Assembly (NCBI GenBank): GCA_964407685.1
Contig: CAYOWI010000004.1
Coordinates: 1 to 57,561, forward strand
Origin: an uncultured Muribaculaceae bacterium
GTDB lineage: Bacteria > Bacillota_I > Bacilli_A > RF39 > UBA660
Direction: 5' to 3'
Length of the DNA stretch: 57,561 nucleotides
In this document: positions 23,325-49,144 of the stretch, in pieces
Position numbering within the stretch: the first letter of the stretch is position 1
Layout of the letters: every line of letters begins with the position of its first letter
Notes under the pieces: model-generated
The model's database searches: none
What the model was told of the DNA's origin: nothing
The model's input: the letters and a program-made list of their open reading frames with translations, nothing else
Position numbers and translations under genes: made by a program

Positions 23325-23451
23325 TTTTTTTATCACTTTTTTTGTATTTTTCGCGTGATTTTAAAAGTTATATATAATAAGTAAAGTAGGAAGTAGTAAA
23401 AAAACTAGCTTTGTTTTCCATCCAACGTGAATAAGAAGGGTGGTGGTATTT

Positions 23452-23541
23452 ATGAGGTTTAGATTTGAAATAAAATTTAGTCCAAAATTAATTATCATTC
23501 TTGCAGCTTTAATAGTACTAGTTATTATTTTTAGTATATAA
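23452..23541 (+). CDS. 29-aa hydrophobic peptide (candidate type I toxin-like), locus A
   Basis: MRFRFEIKFSPKLIIILAALIVLVIIFSI*. Strong SD GGGTGGTGG at 23438-23446 with 5-nt spacing. Not in the ORF track because it is too short. Confidence 0.45.
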   Translation: MRFRFEIKFSPKLIIILAALIVLVIIFSI

Positions 23542-23622
23542 GAAAAACAGAGTTAGTATGTAACTAGCTCTGCTTTTCATTTTTAACCAAATTGGAAAAC
23601 AACTAGTAATGCTGCTTCCTTC
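23541..23622 (-). ncRNA. predicted ~80-nt convergent small RNA (candidate antitoxin), locus A
   Basis: Minus-strand promoter: TTGAAT (23657-23652), 17-nt spacer, extended -10 TGTATAAT (23636-23629). The transcript would run into the shared hairpin. Confidence 0.3.
23548..23580. terminator. bidirectional terminator hairpin, locus A
   Basis: CAGAGTTAG / CTAGCTCTG stem (one G-U) with a 7-nt loop. An A-run lies upstream and a T-rich run downstream. Confidence 0.55.
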
Positions 23623-23717
23623 ATTTATATTATACAATAGTAACTATGTTTATTCAATATATTATTGAAATAAAAATAAAAATGAATTACAATATTATTT
23701 AAGGGAGGTTTGCCTTT

Positions 23718-42128: not shown

Positions 42129-42704
42129 ATGAAATTAACGAGTAAAAAAGCACTGGAAATGTTAGAATCATCTAGAGGAAAAACTCCTCATGATGGTTGG
42201 ATTGATCATTCTATATGTGTTGGATATGCAGCAGGAGTAATTGCGAATGCTTTAAACTTAGATGAAGAAAAAGCCAAAACTTTAGGATATATACATGATA
42301 TTGGAAAATTAATAAAGTTTGAAGGACACGTTATGGAAGGTTATAATTATTTAAAAGAATTAGGTTATGATGATTGTTATTGCAACGTATGTTTAACTCA
42401 TTCATACTTAAATAACGACGTTAATTGTACGCAAGGTGAGCCAAGCAACATTCCTTTTAGAACAGAGTTTATTAAAAATCATGAGTATACTATTTATGAA
42501 AAAGTAATTAATTTATGTGATTTAATGTGTATGAAAAATGTAGTTACCATGGAAAAGAGATTAATAGATGTTATTTCTAGAAGACTACAACATAAAAACA
42601 TTGTTTATCATGTTAAAGAATCTTTAAAATTAAAGAAATATTTTGATGATTTATTAGGTTATAATTTATATGATTTGTTTCCGGAAATAAAGGAAAATTT
42701 ATAA
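42129..42704 (+). CDS. HD-domain phosphohydrolase
   Basis: HSICVGYAAGVIA...YIHDIGK carries the H...HD signature. Overlaps the dnaE stop. Confidence 0.65.
   Translation: MKLTSKKALEMLESSRGKTPHDGWIDHSICVGYAAGVIANALNLDEEKAKTLGYIHDIGKLIKFEGHVMEGYNYLKELGYDDCYCNVCLTHSYLNNDVNCTQGEPSNIPFRTEFIKNHEYTIYEKVINLCDLMCMKNVVTMEKRLIDVISRRLQHKNIVYHVKESLKLKKYFDDLLGYNLYDLFPEIKENL
42592..42703 (+). repeat. direct repeat copy 1 (3' end of the HD-domain gene)
   Basis: 112 nt match 47938-48049 at a constant offset of 5346. The last 100 nt are identical. The 3 mismatches all lie in the first 12 nt. Confidence 0.9.
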
Positions 42705-42706
42705 TT

Positions 42707-42741
42707 AAAAAACACGAAATATAAAAAGACGTGTTTTTTTT
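42707..42741 (+). terminator. rho-independent terminator after the HD-domain gene
   Basis: AACACG / CGTGTT stem followed by TTTTTTTT. Confidence 0.55.
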
Positions 42742-42824
42742 AGTTGACGGCACTGAAAAAACTTAGCTTTTTGCATTTATAAAATATTTAGTTGAAAAAC
42801 TTTTTGTAAAAAATACCAAAAGTA

Positions 42825-42853
42825 TTGACAATCTCTAACTTATGGTATAAAAT
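42825..42853 (+). promoter_or_regulatory. sigma-A-type promoter for the 42911.. operon
   Basis: TTGACA (42825-42830), 17-nt spacer, TAAAAT. Alternatively TGgTATAAA as an extended -10. Confidence 0.5.
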
Positions 42854-42910
42854 ACTAAATGTAAAACAGTTGATTGTGGCAATAAATTAATTGCTATGAG
42901 GGAGGTTTTT

Positions 42911-43297
42911 ATGAGAAATAAAAAATATGATAAAAGTAATTTGTACATATTATACGTGGATGAATATGTGTATTATATACCTTACGCAGATGAAATGCTT
43001 GCATCTGGTACGGATTATTCGATTGATTATTACACGGTTGCTTTTTCCAAAGATGAAAAAAAGTTTATAGATGTTTTTAATAAAAAGAAATACTATATTC
43101 CAGGAAAATTTCTTTGGGGAAATTATAGAGATGTTAAAACATTTATTCCTATAACAAGATATGTTGATTCAGAAGAAGATTTTTTGGATTTATCTCATAT
43201 AAATGATACTCTAGAAAAATATAAAGATGACGTTAGAGATAAAAATGAAGAAATAAGAAAGGAAAAATCAGTATGCCTAGTATTGCAGCACACTTAG
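42911..43297 (+). CDS. hypothetical protein (128 aa)
   Basis: ATG follows GAGGGAGG. No recognisable motif. Overlaps the next gene by 25 nt. Confidence 0.45.
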   Translation: MRNKKYDKSNLYILYVDEYVYYIPYADEMLASGTDYSIDYYTVAFSKDEKKFIDVFNKKKYYIPGKFLWGNYRDVKTFIPITRYVDSEEDFLDLSHINDTLEKYKDDVRDKNEEIRKEKSVCLVLQHT

Positions 43298-43839
43298 TGG
43301 TAGGTAAGCTTGTTGGTAATAAACTTAATAAAGAAAGTTTAGGATTTATACAGGGAAACGTTTTGCCGGATATAATTAAAATTGAAGATAGTCACTGCAA
43401 AATAAAAGGAAAATATTATCTAATACCTAATATTAGTGCTTCACTTAAGAAAAGTAATATAAAAGACAATGATGTACTTGATGGTTATTTATGTCATCTT
43501 TTATTAGATAAATATTTTTTAGACGAATATATTCCTAATAATATTAAAGAATATGATAAAATTAATTTATTTCAAGAAAAAGGTATTTATAGAGATTATA
43601 GTTTAGTAAGTAAAGAACTAATAAATAGTTTTGGAATTGATTTAAAAAAGGTAAATCATTCATTTGAAAATATGGATTATGTTTATGATGATATTAAACT
43701 AAGTGATAATCTAAGATATTTGACTTATGACGCCAAAAGTGAAGTGCCAAGGTATATAGATTTTGATGATTTTTCTAAGTTTTTAATCGAAGTTTCTGAT
43801 AAGATTGTTAATGATATTAAAAAAATGAGGAGGAGATAA
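43273..43839 (+). CDS. putative metal-dependent hydrolase (zinc phospholipase C-like fold)
   Basis: The N-terminus MPSIAAHLVVG, then GNVLPD and GYLCHLLLDKYF, resemble His/Asp ligand blocks of the Zn-dependent PLC/P1-like family. This is a weak call. Confidence 0.4.
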   Translation: MPSIAAHLVVGKLVGNKLNKESLGFIQGNVLPDIIKIEDSHCKIKGKYYLIPNISASLKKSNIKDNDVLDGYLCHLLLDKYFLDEYIPNNIKEYDKINLFQEKGIYRDYSLVSKELINSFGIDLKKVNHSFENMDYVYDDIKLSDNLRYLTYDAKSEVPRYIDFDDFSKFLIEVSDKIVNDIKKMRRR

Positions 43840-43841
43840 AT

Positions 43842-44567
43842 ATGAACATAGTTTTAACGGGATGTTTATTTGTTTTAGACAAGGAAGAAAGTAAAGATAT
43901 AAGAAAGTCAGACACTAATAAAATAAAAGTTGTTTTAGATAAAAATAATGAGCTTATTAAAGCTAACTTTGATAATAAAAATGATTTAAAAGAAATTATT
44001 AGATCGGAAATTAAAAACATTATAGGAACCAGTAAGTTTCATCTTGAACAAGTTTATACGTTAGGTGATGCTAAGTATTATGAAGATGGTGAGATTAACG
44101 TTATATACATAGCAGTTACTAATTCTCAAAACACAAAAAAATTTTCTAAAGATTATAATTTAAAAGAGTTTAGCATTAGTAATAATAGTGAAATGATAAT
44201 TGATGGAATTAAGGTTGGTTATCAAACTAAACAAAAAATTAATAAGGGTGGTATAGAATATTTACATGAGTTTGAGTACCATGAACAAATTAAAGAAAAG
44301 ACTTTAATGGAAATATTAATTTCGTATAAATATTTAAAATCACGGATTGATAATACAGATATTATGTTTAAATTTATGCCCGAAAAATTTGCGTTAGAAG
44401 ACGTAAGACAAGTATATGAGATGATAGCTAATAAAAAGGTTGATAAATCTAATTTTAGAAAACGGATAACTTCTTATTGTTATCCATTAGAGGAAACGAT
44501 AAACAGAGGTTATAGACCTACTCAGTTATATAAATTTAAAGTAAATGAAAATGACGTATGGATATAG
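43842..44567 (+). CDS. NrtR-like regulator (degenerate Nudix domain plus C-terminal winged helix)
   Basis: The C-terminal FMPEKFALEDVRQVYEMIANKKVDKSNFRKRI matches the NrtR wHTH signature (F.L..Lq.vYE.I.g..ldk.NFRkk). The Nudix box is degenerate (RSEIKNIIG). Confidence 0.55.
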   Translation: MNIVLTGCLFVLDKEESKDIRKSDTNKIKVVLDKNNELIKANFDNKNDLKEIIRSEIKNIIGTSKFHLEQVYTLGDAKYYEDGEINVIYIAVTNSQNTKKFSKDYNLKEFSISNNSEMIIDGIKVGYQTKQKINKGGIEYLHEFEYHEQIKEKTLMEILISYKYLKSRIDNTDIMFKFMPEKFALEDVRQVYEMIANKKVDKSNFRKRITSYCYPLEETINRGYRPTQLYKFKVNENDVWI

Positions 44568-44578
44568 GAGGAAGAAAC

Positions 44579-45151
44579 ATGATATTTGCAAGTAACAATA
44601 AAGGTAAATTAAAAGAAATAAGAGAGATTTTAAAATCTTATGAAATTAAATCATTAAAAGAAGCATCAATAGATGTTGACGTAGAAGAAGATCAAGATAG
44701 TTTTTATGGAAATGCTTTAAAAAAGGCTAAAGAGATATATGAAATAGCAAAAGTTCCAGTTATAGCTGATGATTCGGGATTATGTATAGATGTATTAAAT
44801 GGTTGGCCAGGTGTAATGACACATAGATTTTTAGGTGAAAACGCGGGAGATGATGATAGAAATACCGCAATACTTGATAAAATGATGCGGTATAAAAATG
44901 AAGAAAGAAAAGCAAGCGTAGTATGTAATCTAGTTTATTATGATGGAACGGATATCATAACTGGAATTGGGGTTTTAACTGGAAGAATTTCGAATGAAAA
45001 ACGGGGAGAAAATGGATTTGGATTCGACGAGATATTTGAAATAGATAACGGAAAAACTCTAGCAGAGTTATCGGCTCAAGAAAAAAACGAATGTAGTGCA
45101 AGGGCTTTAGCTTGTAAAGACCTAAAGTTAAAATTAAAAAAACATAAATAA
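44579..45151 (+). CDS. rdgB: RdgB/HAM1-family non-canonical purine NTP pyrophosphatase
   Basis: MIFASNNKGKLKEIREIL, ADDSGLCIDVLNGWPGV, GENGFGFDEIF. Confidence 0.85.
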   Translation: MIFASNNKGKLKEIREILKSYEIKSLKEASIDVDVEEDQDSFYGNALKKAKEIYEIAKVPVIADDSGLCIDVLNGWPGVMTHRFLGENAGDDDRNTAILDKMMRYKNEERKASVVCNLVYYDGTDIITGIGVLTGRISNEKRGENGFGFDEIFEIDNGKTLAELSAQEKNECSARALACKDLKLKLKKHK

Positions 45152-45165
45152 AAGGATTTGATATT

Positions 45166-46083
45166 ATGAAAAAAAATTATATAAAAATAATAATTGGAAT
45201 TGTTATTATCTTATTATTAGGAATTTTAATAATCTTTAATAACAATAATAAAAAGGAAAATAACACGGCAAAGGAAAGCTTTAAAGTAGCTGGAATAACA
45301 AGATCACCACTTTATTTACCAATATTTGTTGGTATGGAAAAAAATATGTTTTATGGATTAAAGGTGGAATACGTTAATACTACTGGTGGGGACGTTGTTA
45401 ATACAATGTTGCTTTCTGGTGAAATAGATGCAGCCTTAAATAGTTTAAATATTTCGATAACTAACGCAAATGAAAAAAAACGCCCTATATCAATAGCTGA
45501 ACTTACATCAAGAGGTGGAATAACATTAATAAGTAAAGTTCCTTTAAATGAAATTAAAACGATTGTTAGTGCTAAAAAAGGTGGACTACCAAACGAAATT
45601 CTTGAAAAAAGTACTGACTATGAAATTGTTGCAAATTTAAGTCCTCAGGAAGGAGTTACTTATTTCTTAAATCAAGATGTTGATGCAATAATGGCTTTTG
45701 AACCATTTGCAACACAATTAAAGGATAAAGGGTATAAGTCAAAATCAATGAATACCTATTATGAAGAACTTCCATTTAATACTGTGTTAGTTATGGAAGA
45801 AAACTTGAATGATGATAAGTATAAAAAATTTGTAGAAGGACTTAAAAAGGCAACTGATTATATTTATTCTACTGATTCAAGTAAAGTTGCAGAAGAGGTT
45901 AAAGAGGTTATGGAATTTAGTGATAAAAAGACTTTAGCATCTATTATAGATACTTTTAAAGAAGATAATGTATGGAATAAGACGTTGGAATTAGATGAAA
46001 AAGAATATGAGTATTATTTAAAATTTACTGGACTAAAAAAAGTAGAGTATAAAAAAATATATAAAAACATTCTTGACAAATAG
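45166..46083 (+). CDS. ABC transporter substrate-binding protein (NMT1/SsuA-like)
   Basis: An N-terminal signal/anchor helix followed by a periplasmic-binding-type fold. Operon position is ahead of the permease and ATPase genes. Confidence 0.6.
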   Translation: MKKNYIKIIIGIVIILLLGILIIFNNNNKKENNTAKESFKVAGITRSPLYLPIFVGMEKNMFYGLKVEYVNTTGGDVVNTMLLSGEIDAALNSLNISITNANEKKRPISIAELTSRGGITLISKVPLNEIKTIVSAKKGGLPNEILEKSTDYEIVANLSPQEGVTYFLNQDVDAIMAFEPFATQLKDKGYKSKSMNTYYEELPFNTVLVMEENLNDDKYKKFVEGLKKATDYIYSTDSSKVAEEVKEVMEFSDKKTLASIIDTFKEDNVWNKTLELDEKEYEYYLKFTGLKKVEYKKIYKNILDK

Positions 46084-46095
46084 AAGGTGGTAGTT

Positions 46096-46809
46096 ATGTT
46101 CATAGATATTGTAATTATTATAATAATTCAACTACTATGTAAAAATAGCCTTATTAACACAACCATTTTACCAGCACCGACGGATATCATTTTTAATAGT
46201 GATAGTATTAACATATTAAGTTCATTTTTAATAACTTTAAAATTTATTGGAGTAGTCTTTGCTATTTCGTTAGCTATAAATATGCTAATTGTTATTATAA
46301 TATATCTTCTAGAATTTAAATATTTAGAAAACATTTTATACAGATTAAATTCGATTCCAAGAATAGTAATTATGTTAGTGGGGATTGCAATATTAGGTGT
46401 TGGATATAAAACCATTTCGATAATGACGATTATAAGTAATATGCCTAACTTCGTTATAACGGTACTTGGTTATTTAAAAGGTGAGAATAATAAAAGTATA
46501 ATAGAAGCTGCAAAGGATTGTGGTGCTAGTGATTTTAAAATATTAATTAAGGTTTTAATACCTACTAACATAAGAGGAATTATAATAAGTACAAAAATAT
46601 TGGTATCACAAATAATAAATAGCGTAATTATTGGTGAGTATTTAATAGGAACAACGGGAATAGGTAGTTTACTTCAATATAATTTATTTATGTATAACAT
46701 GAAAAACGTATGGTTTATCGCTTTAATAATTTGTTTGTTTACAATAATTATAAGTAAAGTATTTGATTATGTTTTATCATCAAAAAAACTATGGTTTAAT
46801 TTTAGTTAA
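46096..46809 (+). CDS. ABC transporter permease
   Basis: Polytopic membrane protein. The EAA-like loop region is IEAAKDCGASDFKILIKVLIP. ATG follows AAGGTGG. Confidence 0.7.
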   Translation: MFIDIVIIIIIQLLCKNSLINTTILPAPTDIIFNSDSINILSSFLITLKFIGVVFAISLAINMLIVIIIYLLEFKYLENILYRLNSIPRIVIMLVGIAILGVGYKTISIMTIISNMPNFVITVLGYLKGENNKSIIEAAKDCGASDFKILIKVLIPTNIRGIIISTKILVSQIINSVIIGEYLIGTTGIGSLLQYNLFMYNMKNVWFIALIICLFTIIISKVFDYVLSSKKLWFNFS

Positions 46810-46820
46810 GGAGAAGTATT

Positions 46821-47900
46821 ATGTCAAAGTTAAAGTTTGAAAACGTGATTAAAAAATACGGGAATAACGTTGTTTTTGAAAATTTGAGTTTTGAAATAAA
46901 CGATGGTGAATTTGTTGTTTTGGTTGGTCCTTCTGGTTGTGGAAAAACAACTTTATTAAGAATGATATCTGGTCTAGAAGATTATGATAGTGGAAACGTT
47001 TACTATGAAAATAAATTAGCCAATAAAAATAAACTTATTAATAAGAGTGCTATGGTGTTTCAAAATTATGCTTTGTTTCCTAATATGACGGTGTTTGATA
47101 ACATGACCTTTGGACTAAGAAATAATAAAATAAATAAACAAGAAATAAATGACATGGTTTATAAAACGGCAGAAATGTTAAAAATAAACCATTTGTTAAA
47201 GAGAAGACCTAATGAATTATCAGGTGGTGAAAAACAAAGAGTAGGTTTAGGAAGAGCTTTAGTAAGAAAGCCAGATATATTCTTACTTGATGAACCATTA
47301 GCAAACCTTGATGCAATGTTAAAAGGAAACATGAGAAAAGAAATCAAAAAGATTCATAAAAGAATAAAAAGTACGTTTGTTTACGTTACTCATGATCAGT
47401 TAGAAGCGATGACTTTAGCAACTAAGATAATCGTTATTGATGATAAAAGTATAAAGCAAATAGGAACTCCTTATGAAATATATAAAGAACCAAAAAATAT
47501 ATTTGTAGCAACTTTTTTTGGTAGTCCTAAAATTAATATTTTAGATGCCTACATAATAAAAAAAGATAATACGTATTATATTAAATACGATGAACAATTA
47601 TTTAAATTAAATAAGAATAAATATAATTATGAAGTATTGGTAAAATACGATGCTAAAAAGATTAAAATCGGTATTAGAGCAGAAAATATAAAAATAACTA
47701 GAAATACAGGTATGCAGGTAGATGTTATTAACGCAGAAAACATAGGTAAGGAAAGTTATCTTTATGTAAAATATAAAAATGATTATTTAAACGTTATAAG
47801 TGATAATGACTATCGTGAAAAAAAAGAAATTTTTATTGATTTTAATAATGACTTTTTGTTGTTTGATTATGAGTCTGAAAAAAATATATGTAGTAAATAA
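46821..47900 (+). CDS. ABC transporter ATP-binding protein with a C-terminal TOBE-like domain
   Basis: Walker A GPSGCGKTT, signature LSGGEKQR, Walker B IFLLDEP, plus a ~120-aa C-terminal extension as in MalK/PotA-type ATPases. Confidence 0.85.
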   Translation: MSKLKFENVIKKYGNNVVFENLSFEINDGEFVVLVGPSGCGKTTLLRMISGLEDYDSGNVYYENKLANKNKLINKSAMVFQNYALFPNMTVFDNMTFGLRNNKINKQEINDMVYKTAEMLKINHLLKRRPNELSGGEKQRVGLGRALVRKPDIFLLDEPLANLDAMLKGNMRKEIKKIHKRIKSTFVYVTHDQLEAMTLATKIIVIDDKSIKQIGTPYEIYKEPKNIFVATFFGSPKINILDAYIIKKDNTYYIKYDEQLFKLNKNKYNYEVLVKYDAKKIKIGIRAENIKITRNTGMQVDVINAENIGKESYLYVKYKNDYLNVISDNDYREKKEIFIDFNNDFLLFDYESEKNICSK

Positions 47901-47923
47901 CCATAAATGATAAATTTATGGTT
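47899..47923 (+). terminator. hairpin after the ABC ATPase gene (weak terminator, no clear T-run)
   Basis: AACCATAAAT / ATTTATGGTT, a perfect 10-bp stem with a 5-nt loop. Confidence 0.35.
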
Positions 47924-47937
47924 ATGAAGAGGATCTT

Positions 47938-48049
47938 ATAAAAACGTATTTTATCATGTTAAAGAATCTTTAAAATTAAAGAAATATTTTGATGATTTAT
48001 TAGGTTATAATTTATATGATTTGTTTCCGGAAATAAAGGAAAATTTATA
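47938..48049 (+). repeat. direct repeat copy 2 (orphan remnant of the HD-domain gene 3' end)
   Basis: Matches 42592-42703. It keeps the reading frame (…KNVFYHVKESLKLKKYFDDLLGYNLYDLFPEIKENL) and ends in TAG instead of TAA. No upstream ORF body. Confidence 0.9.
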
Positions 48050-48199
48050 GTATTATATAAATGCTAGAAAAAGAATTCATTATTTCAAGTGTTTTGCAAA
48101 AATATGTATAATAATTAAAATGAAAGCAACTAATATTTTTGTTCTTGGGTTAGAATATGTTTTCCATTTTTTATAGGAATAAGAAATGGGGTGATGTCT

Positions 48200-48280
48200 A
48201 TGAGAAAAGAAAATAAATTTCTTAAAGTCATAGTTATCCTTTTAATTTTATTAATAGGCTTCCTAATATATAAAATATAA
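48200..48280 (+). CDS. 26-aa hydrophobic peptide (candidate type I toxin-like), locus B
   Basis: MRKENKFLKVIVILLILLIGFLIYKI*. SD GGGGTGA (48188-48194) with 5-nt spacing. Promoter TTCAAG-17 nt-TATAAT, with TG (48084-48112). Confidence 0.45.
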   Translation: MRKENKFLKVIVILLILLIGFLIYKI

Positions 48281-48377
48281 AAGAAAAGCATGCTATCCCA
48301 GGGGGGTGTAGCATGCTTTTCCAATACCAAAATATTGGAAAACTTCTAATCCTTTGAAGGTATTAGTCGCTTTCACT
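48281..48377 (-). ncRNA. predicted ~95-nt convergent small RNA (candidate antitoxin), locus B
   Basis: Minus-strand promoter: TTGAAT (48413-48408), 18-nt spacer, TATAAT (48389-48384). The transcript would end at the shared hairpin. Confidence 0.3.
48284..48320. terminator. bidirectional terminator hairpin, locus B
   Basis: AAAAGCATGCTA / TAGCATGCTTTT, a 12-bp stem flanked by A and T runs. Confidence 0.6.
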
Positions 48378-48478
48378 ATTTATATTATATAATAACAATA
48401 ACTAATTATTCAATAGAAAATGAGCTTAATATAGATTAAATCTAGTTTTTTTGTTATAATCTTTATTAGGTGATAGAT

Positions 48479-49144
48479 ATGAAGTTACTCGATAAATTTA
48501 ATATTAAAACTAGTAATATGCACATTTATGATACAGCATTTTCACATTCATCATATTGTAATGAACATAATTTAACAGAAGATTATCAAAGATTAGAGTT
48601 TTTAGGTGATAAAGTATTGGATTTAATTATGAGCGATTATCTTTATAATACAACTAATTACGAAGAAGGTAAAATGACTAAGATTAGATCAATGTATGTA
48701 TGTGAAAACGCTTTATATGAATATGCTTTACTTTTGGATTTTCCATCGTATGTTAAAGTTGGAAAAGGTGAAGAAGCATCCGGAGGTAAGTTTCGAAAAG
48801 CAACACTTGCAGATATGTTTGAATCTTTTTTGGGTGCGGTATATTTAGATCAAGGATATAAAAAAGCTAGAGAAATAGTATATGAAATAGTTATTCCTTT
48901 TATTAAAGAAAAACCAGAGACATTTTTTATGGATTATAAATCTAAATTACAGGAAATGGTACAGACTACAAAGAAGTCGGTAACTTATAAGCTTATAAAT
49001 GAAGAGGGGCCCGCTCACGATAGAACGTTTACAATGAATGTTATCGTTGATGGAATAGTACTTGGTACTGGAATTGCAAAATCAAAAAAAGAAGCAGAAC
49101 AAGAAGCTGCACACTATGCCATGGAAAAGTGCGCTAAACTTTAG
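48479..49144 (+). CDS. rnc: ribonuclease III
   Basis: RNase III signature QRLEFLGDKVLD, plus a C-terminal dsRBD (GPAHDRTF...AKSKKEAEQEAA). Confidence 0.9.
   Translation: MKLLDKFNIKTSNMHIYDTAFSHSSYCNEHNLTEDYQRLEFLGDKVLDLIMSDYLYNTTNYEEGKMTKIRSMYVCENALYEYALLLDFPSYVKVGKGEEASGGKFRKATLADMFESFLGAVYLDQGYKKAREIVYEIVIPFIKEKPETFFMDYKSKLQEMVQTTKKSVTYKLINEEGPAHDRTFTMNVIVDGIVLGTGIAKSKKEAEQEAAHYAMEKCAKL

Follow-up and report, generated by a model that had tools for sequence, protein, structure and literature searches.

A candidate type I toxin–antitoxin-like module with look-alike 5' stem-loops on both predicted RNAs, upstream of rnc in an uncultured gut bacterium

Introduction

In Fst/RNAII and SprA1, toxin–antitoxin (TA) systems that belong to type I, the antisense RNA is encoded on the 3' side of the toxin gene and overlaps its terminator but not its open reading frame (ORF) (PMC8594479, PMC7472228). 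These par loci are built from convergent promoters, a shared bidirectional terminator, a stem-loop that hides the Shine–Dalgarno (SD) sequence and a structure at the 5' extremity of the mRNA (PMC7472228, PMC8594479), and the layouts of the txpA/RatA, bsrG/SR4, bsrE/SR5 and yonT/SR6 families have likewise been described (PMC8594479). An inert primary transcript with a nearby anti-SD sequence is a hallmark of type I toxin mRNAs (PMC6733600). The element considered here, locus B, occupies positions 48084-48415 of a 57,561-nt stretch of DNA (contig CAYOWI010000004.1, assembly GCA_964407685.1), referred to throughout as the window, whose numbering is used unless another contig is named. Locus B lies directly upstream of rnc and is probably a chromosomal, accessory type I TA-like module, belonging to an undescribed family of AT-rich uncultured gut Bacilli, as judged by sequence comparison and RNA folding.

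A close parallel is par (Fst/RNA I-RNA II of E. faecalis pAD1 and its chromosomal homologues, SprA1/SprA1AS of S. aureus among them), with which the module shares predicted convergent promoters, a shared bidirectional terminator that gives the two RNAs complementary hairpins, a toxin mRNA of ~200 nt (here RNA I) accompanied by a short small RNA (sRNA; here RNA II) that leaves most of the ORF uncovered, and an intramolecular stem-loop predicted to sequester the SD. A 5' stem-loop begins ~3 nt from the inferred RNA I start, but its helix is local and not par-like. In the A-type modules of the family, a 19-nt direct repeat (84% identity) between the leader and the 3' strand of the terminator would provide RNA II with a second imperfect target. 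Unlike in par, this second complementary site covers the anti-SD and not the start codon, and it is weak in locus B; furthermore, the 5' ends of the two module RNAs are same-sense copies of each other, encoded as inverted repeats in the DNA. The module peptides lack the Fst/Ldr signature, having a transmembrane helix only, with no conserved Trp, no charged C-terminal tail and no P/D/S/TxxxG motif. Nor was any direct repeat longer than 7 nt found between the leader/ORF and the right side of locus B that could correspond to DRa/DRb, which in par are transcribed in opposite directions and are complementary to the initiation region of the toxin. Because the toxin signature and the DRa/DRb repeats both fail, the module has a par-like layout but is not a member of par/Fst.

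The 3'-overlapping Bacillus systems (txpA/RatA, bsrG/SR4, bsrE/SR5 and yonT/SR6) resemble the module in having a convergent antisense RNA on the 3' side and a small hydrophobic peptide, and the module, too, would act via a 3' duplex. In these Bacillus systems the overlap enters the ORF and spans at least 75 nt. The overlap in the module is ~50 nt, essentially the terminator and the last two codons, and there is no sequence similarity. With hok/Sok and aapA/IsoA the module shares an inert primary transcript with an anti-SD and, possibly, a long-range 5'-3' stem around the mRNA (PMC6733600). It differs from them in that the 3' partner of such a stem lies past the terminator, so that read-through is needed, in that its antisense RNA lies at the 3' end and not over the 5' region, and in that the stem would leave the SD uncovered.

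Results

Anatomy of locus B

A sequence-only reading of the window had proposed at this locus a small-peptide gene and a convergent sRNA flanked by matching arms, and all eight sequence items that it listed were found in place when the sequence was re-inspected (Table 1). The left promoter consists of TTCAAG (48084-48089), a 17-nt spacer and TATAAT (48107-48112). Its TG directly abuts the -10 box (TGTATAAT, 48105-48112), one base nearer than in the canonical TGnTATAAT, and because its -35 box matches TTGACA at only 3 of 6 positions it is not listed in a consensus promoter scan. The SD sequence and the 26-codon ORF encoding MRKENKFLKVIVILLILLIGFLIYKI are present, followed by the bidirectional terminator, which had been described as 12 bp long (48284-48320) and has a perfect 13-bp stem (48283-48295 with 48309-48321). 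A terminator scan missed it because of its 13-nt loop. The tract after the stem holds only four U on the plus strand and reads U4CU4 on the minus strand. Beyond it, the proposed minus-strand promoter (TTGAAT-18 nt-TATAAT) is nearly identical to the right promoter of locus A, a related module in the same window.

The inverted arms were also confirmed, and a repeat search extended their similarity to the -10 boxes (48107-48135 with 48361-48389, 29 nt, 79% complementary) and returned a second inverted pair (48159-48172 with 48330-48343). The same search recovered the 10-bp hairpin between the terminator and the right arm (48317-48326 with 48333-48342), the stem of which is retained in the related locus of relative L002 with an altered loop. 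The pairing proposed between leader and SD is likewise seen in the minimum-free-energy fold, where CCAUUUUUUAU pairs with AUAAGAAAUGG. Compared with dinucleotide shuffles, the predicted RNAs fold with z-scores of -5.2 (RNA I) and -6.4 (RNA II), and a read-through RNA with -7.5. Since the architecture recurs in independent genomes and these z-scores are strongly negative, it is beyond chance, and the observation at locus B is real and conserved.

Table 1. Features of locus B and its surroundings, with the paralogous locus A (positions in the window)
Feature	Position	Strand	Basis or remark
Weak left promoter of the peptide mRNA (RNA I), TTCAAG-17 nt-TGTATAAT	48084..48112	+	Sequence; predicted RNA start near 48119
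Left arm with GUUUUCCA at its end; predicted 5' stem-loop of RNA I (GAAAGC...GUUUUC)	48122..48166	+	Folds
Anti-SD hairpin CCAUUUUUUAU/AUAAGAAAUGG, holding the first SD bases	48164..48189	+	Folds and family consensus structure
SD sequence GGGGTGA	48188..48194	+	Sequence; GGTGAT kept in all full modules except L049
26-codon ORF, MRKENKFLKVIVILLILLIGFLIYKI; predicted membrane peptide, putative toxin	48200..48280	+	Intact in 15/15 full modules
Shared bidirectional terminator hairpin	48283..48321	both	Inverted-repeat search and folds; with its flanks the sole perfect RNA I/RNA II complementarity
10-bp hairpin UUUUCCAAUA/UAUUGGAAAA between terminator and right arm, overlapping both	48317..48342		Repeat search
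Right arm, predicted 5' stem-loop of RNA II, same-sense copy of the left arm	48336..48374	-	Folds
Near-consensus convergent promoter of RNA II	48384..48413	-	10/12 consensus matches; conserved across modules; predicted RNA start near 48377
Hairpin CTAGATTAAATCTAG and T7 terminator, then TGTTATAAT promoter of rnc (bounding element outside the module)	48432..48460	+	
Locus A, paralogous module	23371..23659	+	Peptide MRFRFEIKFSPKLIIILAALIVLVIIFSI 23452-23541; arms 23388-23420 and 23593-23620

A family of modules with one architecture

Locus B had been read as a second copy of the architecture of locus A (~23350-23660), and the two do share one layout, locus A having its own matching arms, which end in GTTTTCCA. 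To find further copies, one genome per species was scanned for the exact leader motif common to both loci, GTTTTCCA-N6-14-GAATAAGAANNGNGGTG, which gave 11 matches on 9 contigs, all from gut metagenome-assembled genomes (MAGs) labelled uncultured Bacilli, Mollicutes or Clostridium sp., or in one case Muribaculaceae. This exact motif misses variants such as those in L018 and L049. A scan of JGI metagenomes added one true member (L012) and five chance matches in coding DNA, and the single match in a viral scan was due to chance only. With an nhmmer profile of the modules, tandem copies were found in L008 and L010 and orphan right halves beside full modules in L004 and L007, and inspection of the DNA upstream of rnc in relatives yielded the extra variants L018-L020, L022, L049 and L050.

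Altogether, 15 distinct full modules were collected from AT-rich gut MAGs, with an identical order of parts. Each has a weak left -10 box immediately after TG (TATAAT, GATAAT, TCTAAT, GGTAAT or TCAAAT), GTTTTCC[A/G] at the end of its 5' arm, GAATAAGAA and GG(T/A)GGTGAT in its leader, an ATG-initiated ORF of 26-29 codons, the bidirectional terminator, a spacer, [T/C]GGAAAAC and the right arm. The right promoter is TTGAAT or TTGATA, 17-18 nt and TATAAT in nearly all modules (L009 has TTGTAA), and is thus near-consensus across modules in which the left -10 boxes are degenerate. The suggestion that loci A and B represent a small, type I TA-like family of peptide/convergent-sRNA modules is borne out, as far as sequence predictions go, by this shared architecture.

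Several members show rearranged or altered parts. The orphan right halves (L004 3825-3960 and L007 5853-5988) consist of an ORF 3' remnant, the terminator, the right arm and the right promoter; they sit right after the stop codon of the preceding gene, each with a full module immediately downstream of it, and might be spare genes for antisense RNA. Two head-to-tail copies are found in L008 (5374-5997) and L010 (306-739), with identical peptides and differing anti-SD spacers (CCACACTTTTT, CCATTCGTCTT); the L010 pair occupies the syntenic site of locus A, which in the window is flanked by an ABC-2 permease gene and a DnaD/DnaB-like gene. In the A-type module of L049 (326-647), the ORF and arms are intact, the SD region is replaced (GAAGAATAGAAAATTGTTTGGCGTT instead of GAATAAGAAGGGTGGTGAT) and the right arm has been rewritten from ACTAGTTG to ACCAGCTG without losing its fold. 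Finally, in L018 (~960-1170; also in L019-L022), ~240 nt between an A-type module and rnc carry a second set of convergent promoter-like boxes followed by matched GAAGGAT[G/A]AGAAAA arms with no ORF between them, which may be a decayed or miniature module.

The encoded peptides

The peptides of the family are MRKENKFLKVIVILLILLIGFLIYKI, MRFRFEIKFSPKLIIILAALIVLVIIFSI, MRFKFEIKLNTKLIIILILIVILVITYNV, MKFKFEIKFNIKLIIILIFIILYIIYN, MEFKIKINNKIVIILLIVIAVIVIINK, MRFKFEIQFTPRLIIILLIIVVIVIVI and close variants of these. The earlier reading had named an ORF broken in relatives that keep the arms as evidence contrary to it; in all 15 full modules the frame is open, despite heavy divergence. A-type peptides share the N terminus M-[RKE]-F-[KR]-F-E-I-K, which is absent from those of locus B and L009, and the core of the peptide is hydrophobic despite many substitutions, mostly among I, L, V and F.

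Database searches gave no annotation for either the peptides or the RNAs. Pfam, NCBIfam and PHROGs returned only weak transmembrane-helix noise for the peptides, none of 10 peptide forms was present in an exact look-up of ~15 billion predicted proteins, and a profile of the two window peptides matched none of 1.84 billion representatives. Rfam, including its 13 type I antitoxin families, gave no match at gathering score in the window and only sub-threshold noise (E <= 10) in 47900-48500. No DNA similar to the module was found in plasmid and phage collections. The module is therefore without annotation in any collection searched.

The arms are homologous, strand-specific 5' stem-loops

The arms are inverted in the DNA and transcription is convergent, so RNA I and RNA II would begin with the same sequence (GAAAGC[A/G]ACUAAUA…UUAGAA…GUUUUCCA) and are not complementary there. 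Pairing of one arm with the other between RNA I and RNA II was accordingly rejected: the best duplexes of the non-overlapping 5' parts equal those of shuffled controls in both locus B (-19.8 vs -19.7 +/- 3.1 kcal/mol) and locus A (-15.7 vs -15.8 +/- 2.9 kcal/mol). Taken together with the lack of par-type direct repeats, this means that the arm matching does not represent covariation of a duplex between an sRNA and its mRNA. A role for GUUUUCCA of RNA II as an anti-SD acting in trans on the SD of RNA I was also discarded, because only 3-5 bp can form in locus B.

The arms are instead homologous 5' stem-loops, each favoring one strand. In the family consensus of RNA II, an 8-bp helix is formed in which every variable position is an A<->G change opposite U; such changes preserve pairing in the minus-strand RNA only, which makes the right-arm helix strand-specific. 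Over the family, the mean energy of the right-arm hairpin is -10.6 kcal/mol on the minus strand vs -4.9 for its complement, and that of the left-arm hairpin -5.6 on the plus strand vs -2.8 kcal/mol for its complement, with values of -7.5 on the plus strand vs -1.6 kcal/mol for the minus-strand complement in the left arm of locus B. Nothing else in the sequence speaks as strongly as this strand bias for the existence of both RNAs and for the importance of their 5' hairpins.

The further claim that the two arms match within each locus was upheld in part. Cognate arms are more alike than non-cognate ones (permutation p < 1/20000 overall and ~0.001 without the B type, in related modules that represent few independent events), but among A-type modules the matching is loose. 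Parallel states in both arms include GGAGA (L008), GGAAG (window A), G at position 8 (L049), AGGC (L004 type) and, in B, a long extended hairpin, whereas several A/G differences, in L003, L009 and L018, are not parallel. Gene conversion was judged unlikely as the sole cause of the matching, because the discriminator and loop that flank the co-varying purine strand stay left- or right-specific family-wide. The paired RNAs of loci A and B are predicted to be orthogonal within the one genome, modeled duplex energies being -98 (B) and -74 kcal/mol for cognate pairs and -29 and -38 kcal/mol for A/B cross pairs.

Between the window and L002, whose flanking DNA is ~95% identical, not a single position differs in the left arm, leader or ORF, but ~6 positions do in the right arm (~10 in right arm plus spacer), which goes against strict matching of the arms. 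Of the 13 differences in the module, 12 fall in the RNA II body (48288-48370: the 5' side and loop of the terminator, the spacer loop and the right arm), a cluster for which the antisense RNA must either have evolved rapidly or have been replaced.

The leader carries an anti-SD and resembles the terminator

An alifold consensus of nine RNA I leaders pairs UUGUU..CCAYYY with RRGUGG.UGAUA, which identifies the conserved GUUUUCCA as the anti-SD. Changes in this helix are mostly C->U opposite G; the pairing is CCAUUU:AAAUGG in B and CCAUCC:GGGUGG in A. In the folds, the full modules have their SD held in such a hairpin, although the helix of locus B takes in no more of the SD than its first two G.

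The 3' half of the left arm resembles the 3' strand of the module's own terminator. In locus A this takes the form of the 19-nt direct repeat (23403-23421 in the leader and 23562-23580 in the terminator; alignment p = 0.0005), and the equivalent sequences in locus B are GGGT-TAGAATATGTTTTCCA and GGGTGTAGCAT-GCTTTTCCA (p = 0.012). Because of this likeness, the RNA I leader of A-type modules shows significant complementarity to RNA II at the 5' strand of its terminator, with duplexes of -22 to -36 kcal/mol (p <= 0.004); in B the complementarity is not significant (-22.1 kcal/mol, p = 0.15). The fit is type-specific. The left arm, the terminator and the right arm are thus three related hairpins, and A-type modules would have a par-like second contact, located at the anti-SD and not at the start codon. 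A cis antiterminator formed by the left arm and the 5' strand of the terminator was rejected: ~14 bp can be drawn on paper for A-type modules, but this pairing loses to the terminator hairpin (-15 to -25 kcal/mol). U-turn (YUNR) motifs in the terminator loops, as judged by eye, are inconsistent across modules.

Locus B occupies a variable slot upstream of rnc

The block composed of hairpin CTAGATTAAATCTAG, T7 and TGTTATAAT is found directly before rnc in every relative examined, with or without a module. Such a conserved terminator and promoter would insulate rnc from upstream transcription and provide it with its own promoter, and 48432-48460 is therefore likely to be an insulator terminator plus the rnc promoter. 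The slot before this block differs between relatives. The gene order in L002 is dnaE, HD gene, locus B and rnc, but in some relatives with Rnc 86-96% identical the slot is empty (HD then rnc, or dnaE then rnc), and in others it contains an MFS, DUF5662 or LRR gene, a PDDEXK_2/Rpn-like gene, an rve transposase or an A-type module. Among the relatives examined, a B-type module stands before rnc only in the window, L001 and L002, and locus B is an accessory module in a variable slot. In L018-L064 the slot is a strain-level hotspot, at which many assemblies break.

A second difference lies farther upstream. Positions 42705-47937 of the window (~5.2 kb), which there separate the HD gene from a leftover piece of its 3' end, are absent from L002. 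A 112-nt, 97% direct repeat derived from the 3' end of the HD gene flanks the segment (42592-42703 and 47938-48049). Within it lie an RdgB/ITPase-like gene, an ABC transporter and small ORFs, and the whole looks as if it had been inserted by recombination, with the orphan HD remnant as a by-product.

Discussion

Features expected of a type I TA system are present at locus B: a short mRNA that would code for a small (20-60 aa) hydrophobic peptide, an antisense RNA predicted to have a complementary region through the terminator overlap, and conserved pairing of SD and anti-SD in the predicted fold of the primary transcript. In the mechanism that we propose, the weak left promoter would yield RNA I of ~205 nt, starting with the 5' stem-loop, followed by GUUUUCCA, which would fold onto the SD region, so that the 26-residue hydrophobic peptide would be poorly translated from the primary transcript. 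The much better convergent promoter would produce RNA II of ~95-105 nt, the 3' half of which would be exactly antisense to RNA I around its stop codon and terminator. Pairing via the complementary terminator hairpins could then lead to a ~50-bp duplex that would either inactivate RNA I or mark it for double-strand-specific cleavage. We observe directly how the locus is built, that its ORF, promoters and helices are conserved, that the helices favor one strand and that the module is present in some relatives and absent from others; that the locus is transcribed, that the peptide is toxic and that RNA II acts as the antitoxin, by this route of decay, we infer.

Several points weigh against this interpretation. 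Both transcripts and their ends are sequence predictions, and the plus-strand promoter has a poor -35 box. The only strong complementarity between RNA I and RNA II is the ~50-nt overlap at the terminator, a thin handle for pairing, and no significant complementarity of RNA II to the translation-initiation region of RNA I was found in B (p = 0.15), which leaves a translational block by RNA II without an obvious basis. Substitutions in the peptide are mostly non-synonymous, suggesting a coding constraint on composition and not on sequence, and even at E <= 10 the peptides hit none of the toxin models in Pfam or NCBIfam. A type I TA module, as such, also does not account for the lasting match between the arms.

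This last point is addressed by an extension of the type I TA reading that we regard as possible but doubtful, in which the selected partner of the left arm would be the plus-strand copy of the right arm. RNA I would partly read through its weak plus-strand terminator and its 5' arm would pair with the 3' extension, enclosing the whole mRNA as in hok and aapA; RNA II, the antisense of that extension, resembles the left arm and would compete with it for the extension, and trimming back to the terminator hairpin would free the 5' arm. Type I toxin mRNAs are known to form long-distance 5'-3' interactions (PMC6733600), and the read-through RNA (48119-48455) does fold with its arms paired around the mRNA, at -93 kcal/mol. 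Duplexes of the left arm with the plus-strand right arm reach -23 to -37 kcal/mol, the plus strand pairing better than the minus strand, by a mean of 4 kcal/mol and in 12 of 15 modules. When the arms of the 12 A-type modules are treated as a helix in one plus-strand RNA, its outer 9 bp are 96% paired, compared with only 31-60% in slid controls; four pairs have changed on both sides, and the covariation score was reached by 1 of 500 shuffles. These changes represent few independent compensatory events (~2-3 lineages of related sequences), however, and several arm differences, noted above, are not parallel. The better match of cognate arms alongside left- and right-specific discriminators and loops counts for this fold-back and against plain gene conversion, but the strand bias could stem from two separate hairpins alone. 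The proposal depends on putative read-through: the short U-tract on the plus strand (U4 in B), next to the longer one on the minus strand, makes leakage plausible for B, yet the terminator hairpin is strong, conserved and, judging by its G.U positions, better paired on the plus strand. In addition, pairing of the anti-SD GUUUUCCA with UGGAAAAC in this fold would release part of the SD, the opposite of what happens in hok. A more speculative idea, which we put forward as improbable, is that the antitoxin RNA, instead of being an antisense of the toxin mRNA, is structurally a paralogue of its 5' end and competes with the 5' arm for a shared partner, namely the read-through 3' extension of RNA I and/or the terminator strands, with the three hairpins co-evolving. 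The leader would then switch between SD-closed and SD-open folds, and the matched arms would set the specificity of each paralogue; if true, this would be a mode of mimicry or strand competition not described for type I TA systems.

Explanations outside type I TA were considered as well. It is unlikely, although worth weighing, that the ORF encodes a small non-toxic membrane protein with a cis-antisense regulator, the arms being the trace of an inverted duplication of the promoter and of a 5' stem-loop that would protect both RNAs from 5' exonuclease. Terminal 5' stem-loops are a general stabilizer of RNA in Firmicutes, both hairpins here are strand-specific, the peptide lacks similarity to toxin families and L049 has lost its SD while keeping the ORF. 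Simple descent from such a duplication would nevertheless leave the lineage-specific arm matching unexplained, and tandem amplification, orphan antisense copies, patchy presence in the slot among near-identical strains, SD occlusion and the combination of a weak sense with a strong antisense promoter make up the usual syndrome of type I TA loci. The inverted repeats of 29-45 nt that flank the unit, and its position in a hotspot where relatives carry transposase-like genes, might be taken to mean that the arms are recombination or transposition sites, the unit being either MITE-like or a cassette whose inversion would place the ORF under the weak or the strong promoter by turns. This is very improbable, given that all 15 full modules have a single orientation, with the left-type arm beside the leader, that the promoters, conserved together with the arms, are located outside them, that arm differences are biased toward G.U on the transcribed strands, which is not expected of a DNA site, and that locus A is syntenic in L010; no recombinase was called beside the rnc-upstream modules checked or among the window ORFs flanking loci A and B. 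The least credible of the explanations is that the region, which lies directly upstream of rnc and is rich in long stems of the kind cleaved by RNase III, is a long structured rnc leader or regulatory element such as an RNase III autoregulation site. The hairpin, T7 terminator and TGTTATAAT promoter separate the module from the rnc start codon, relatives with 86-95% identical Rnc have no module, and modules of the same type adjoin unrelated genes elsewhere.

If locus B is a type I TA-like module, it would add such a family to a poorly known uncultured gut lineage, the AT-rich Bacilli/'Mollicutes' MAGs, in which it falls into an annotation gap, as its peptides are too short for gene finders. 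The module also marks a recombination hotspot beside rnc that differs between near-identical strains. It offers a compact test case for whether matched 5' hairpins set cognate specificity, and its quasi-palindromic build, running from promoter and hairpin through ORF and terminator to hairpin and promoter, suggests how inverted duplication of a toxin gene's own 5' end can give rise to an antisense regulator.

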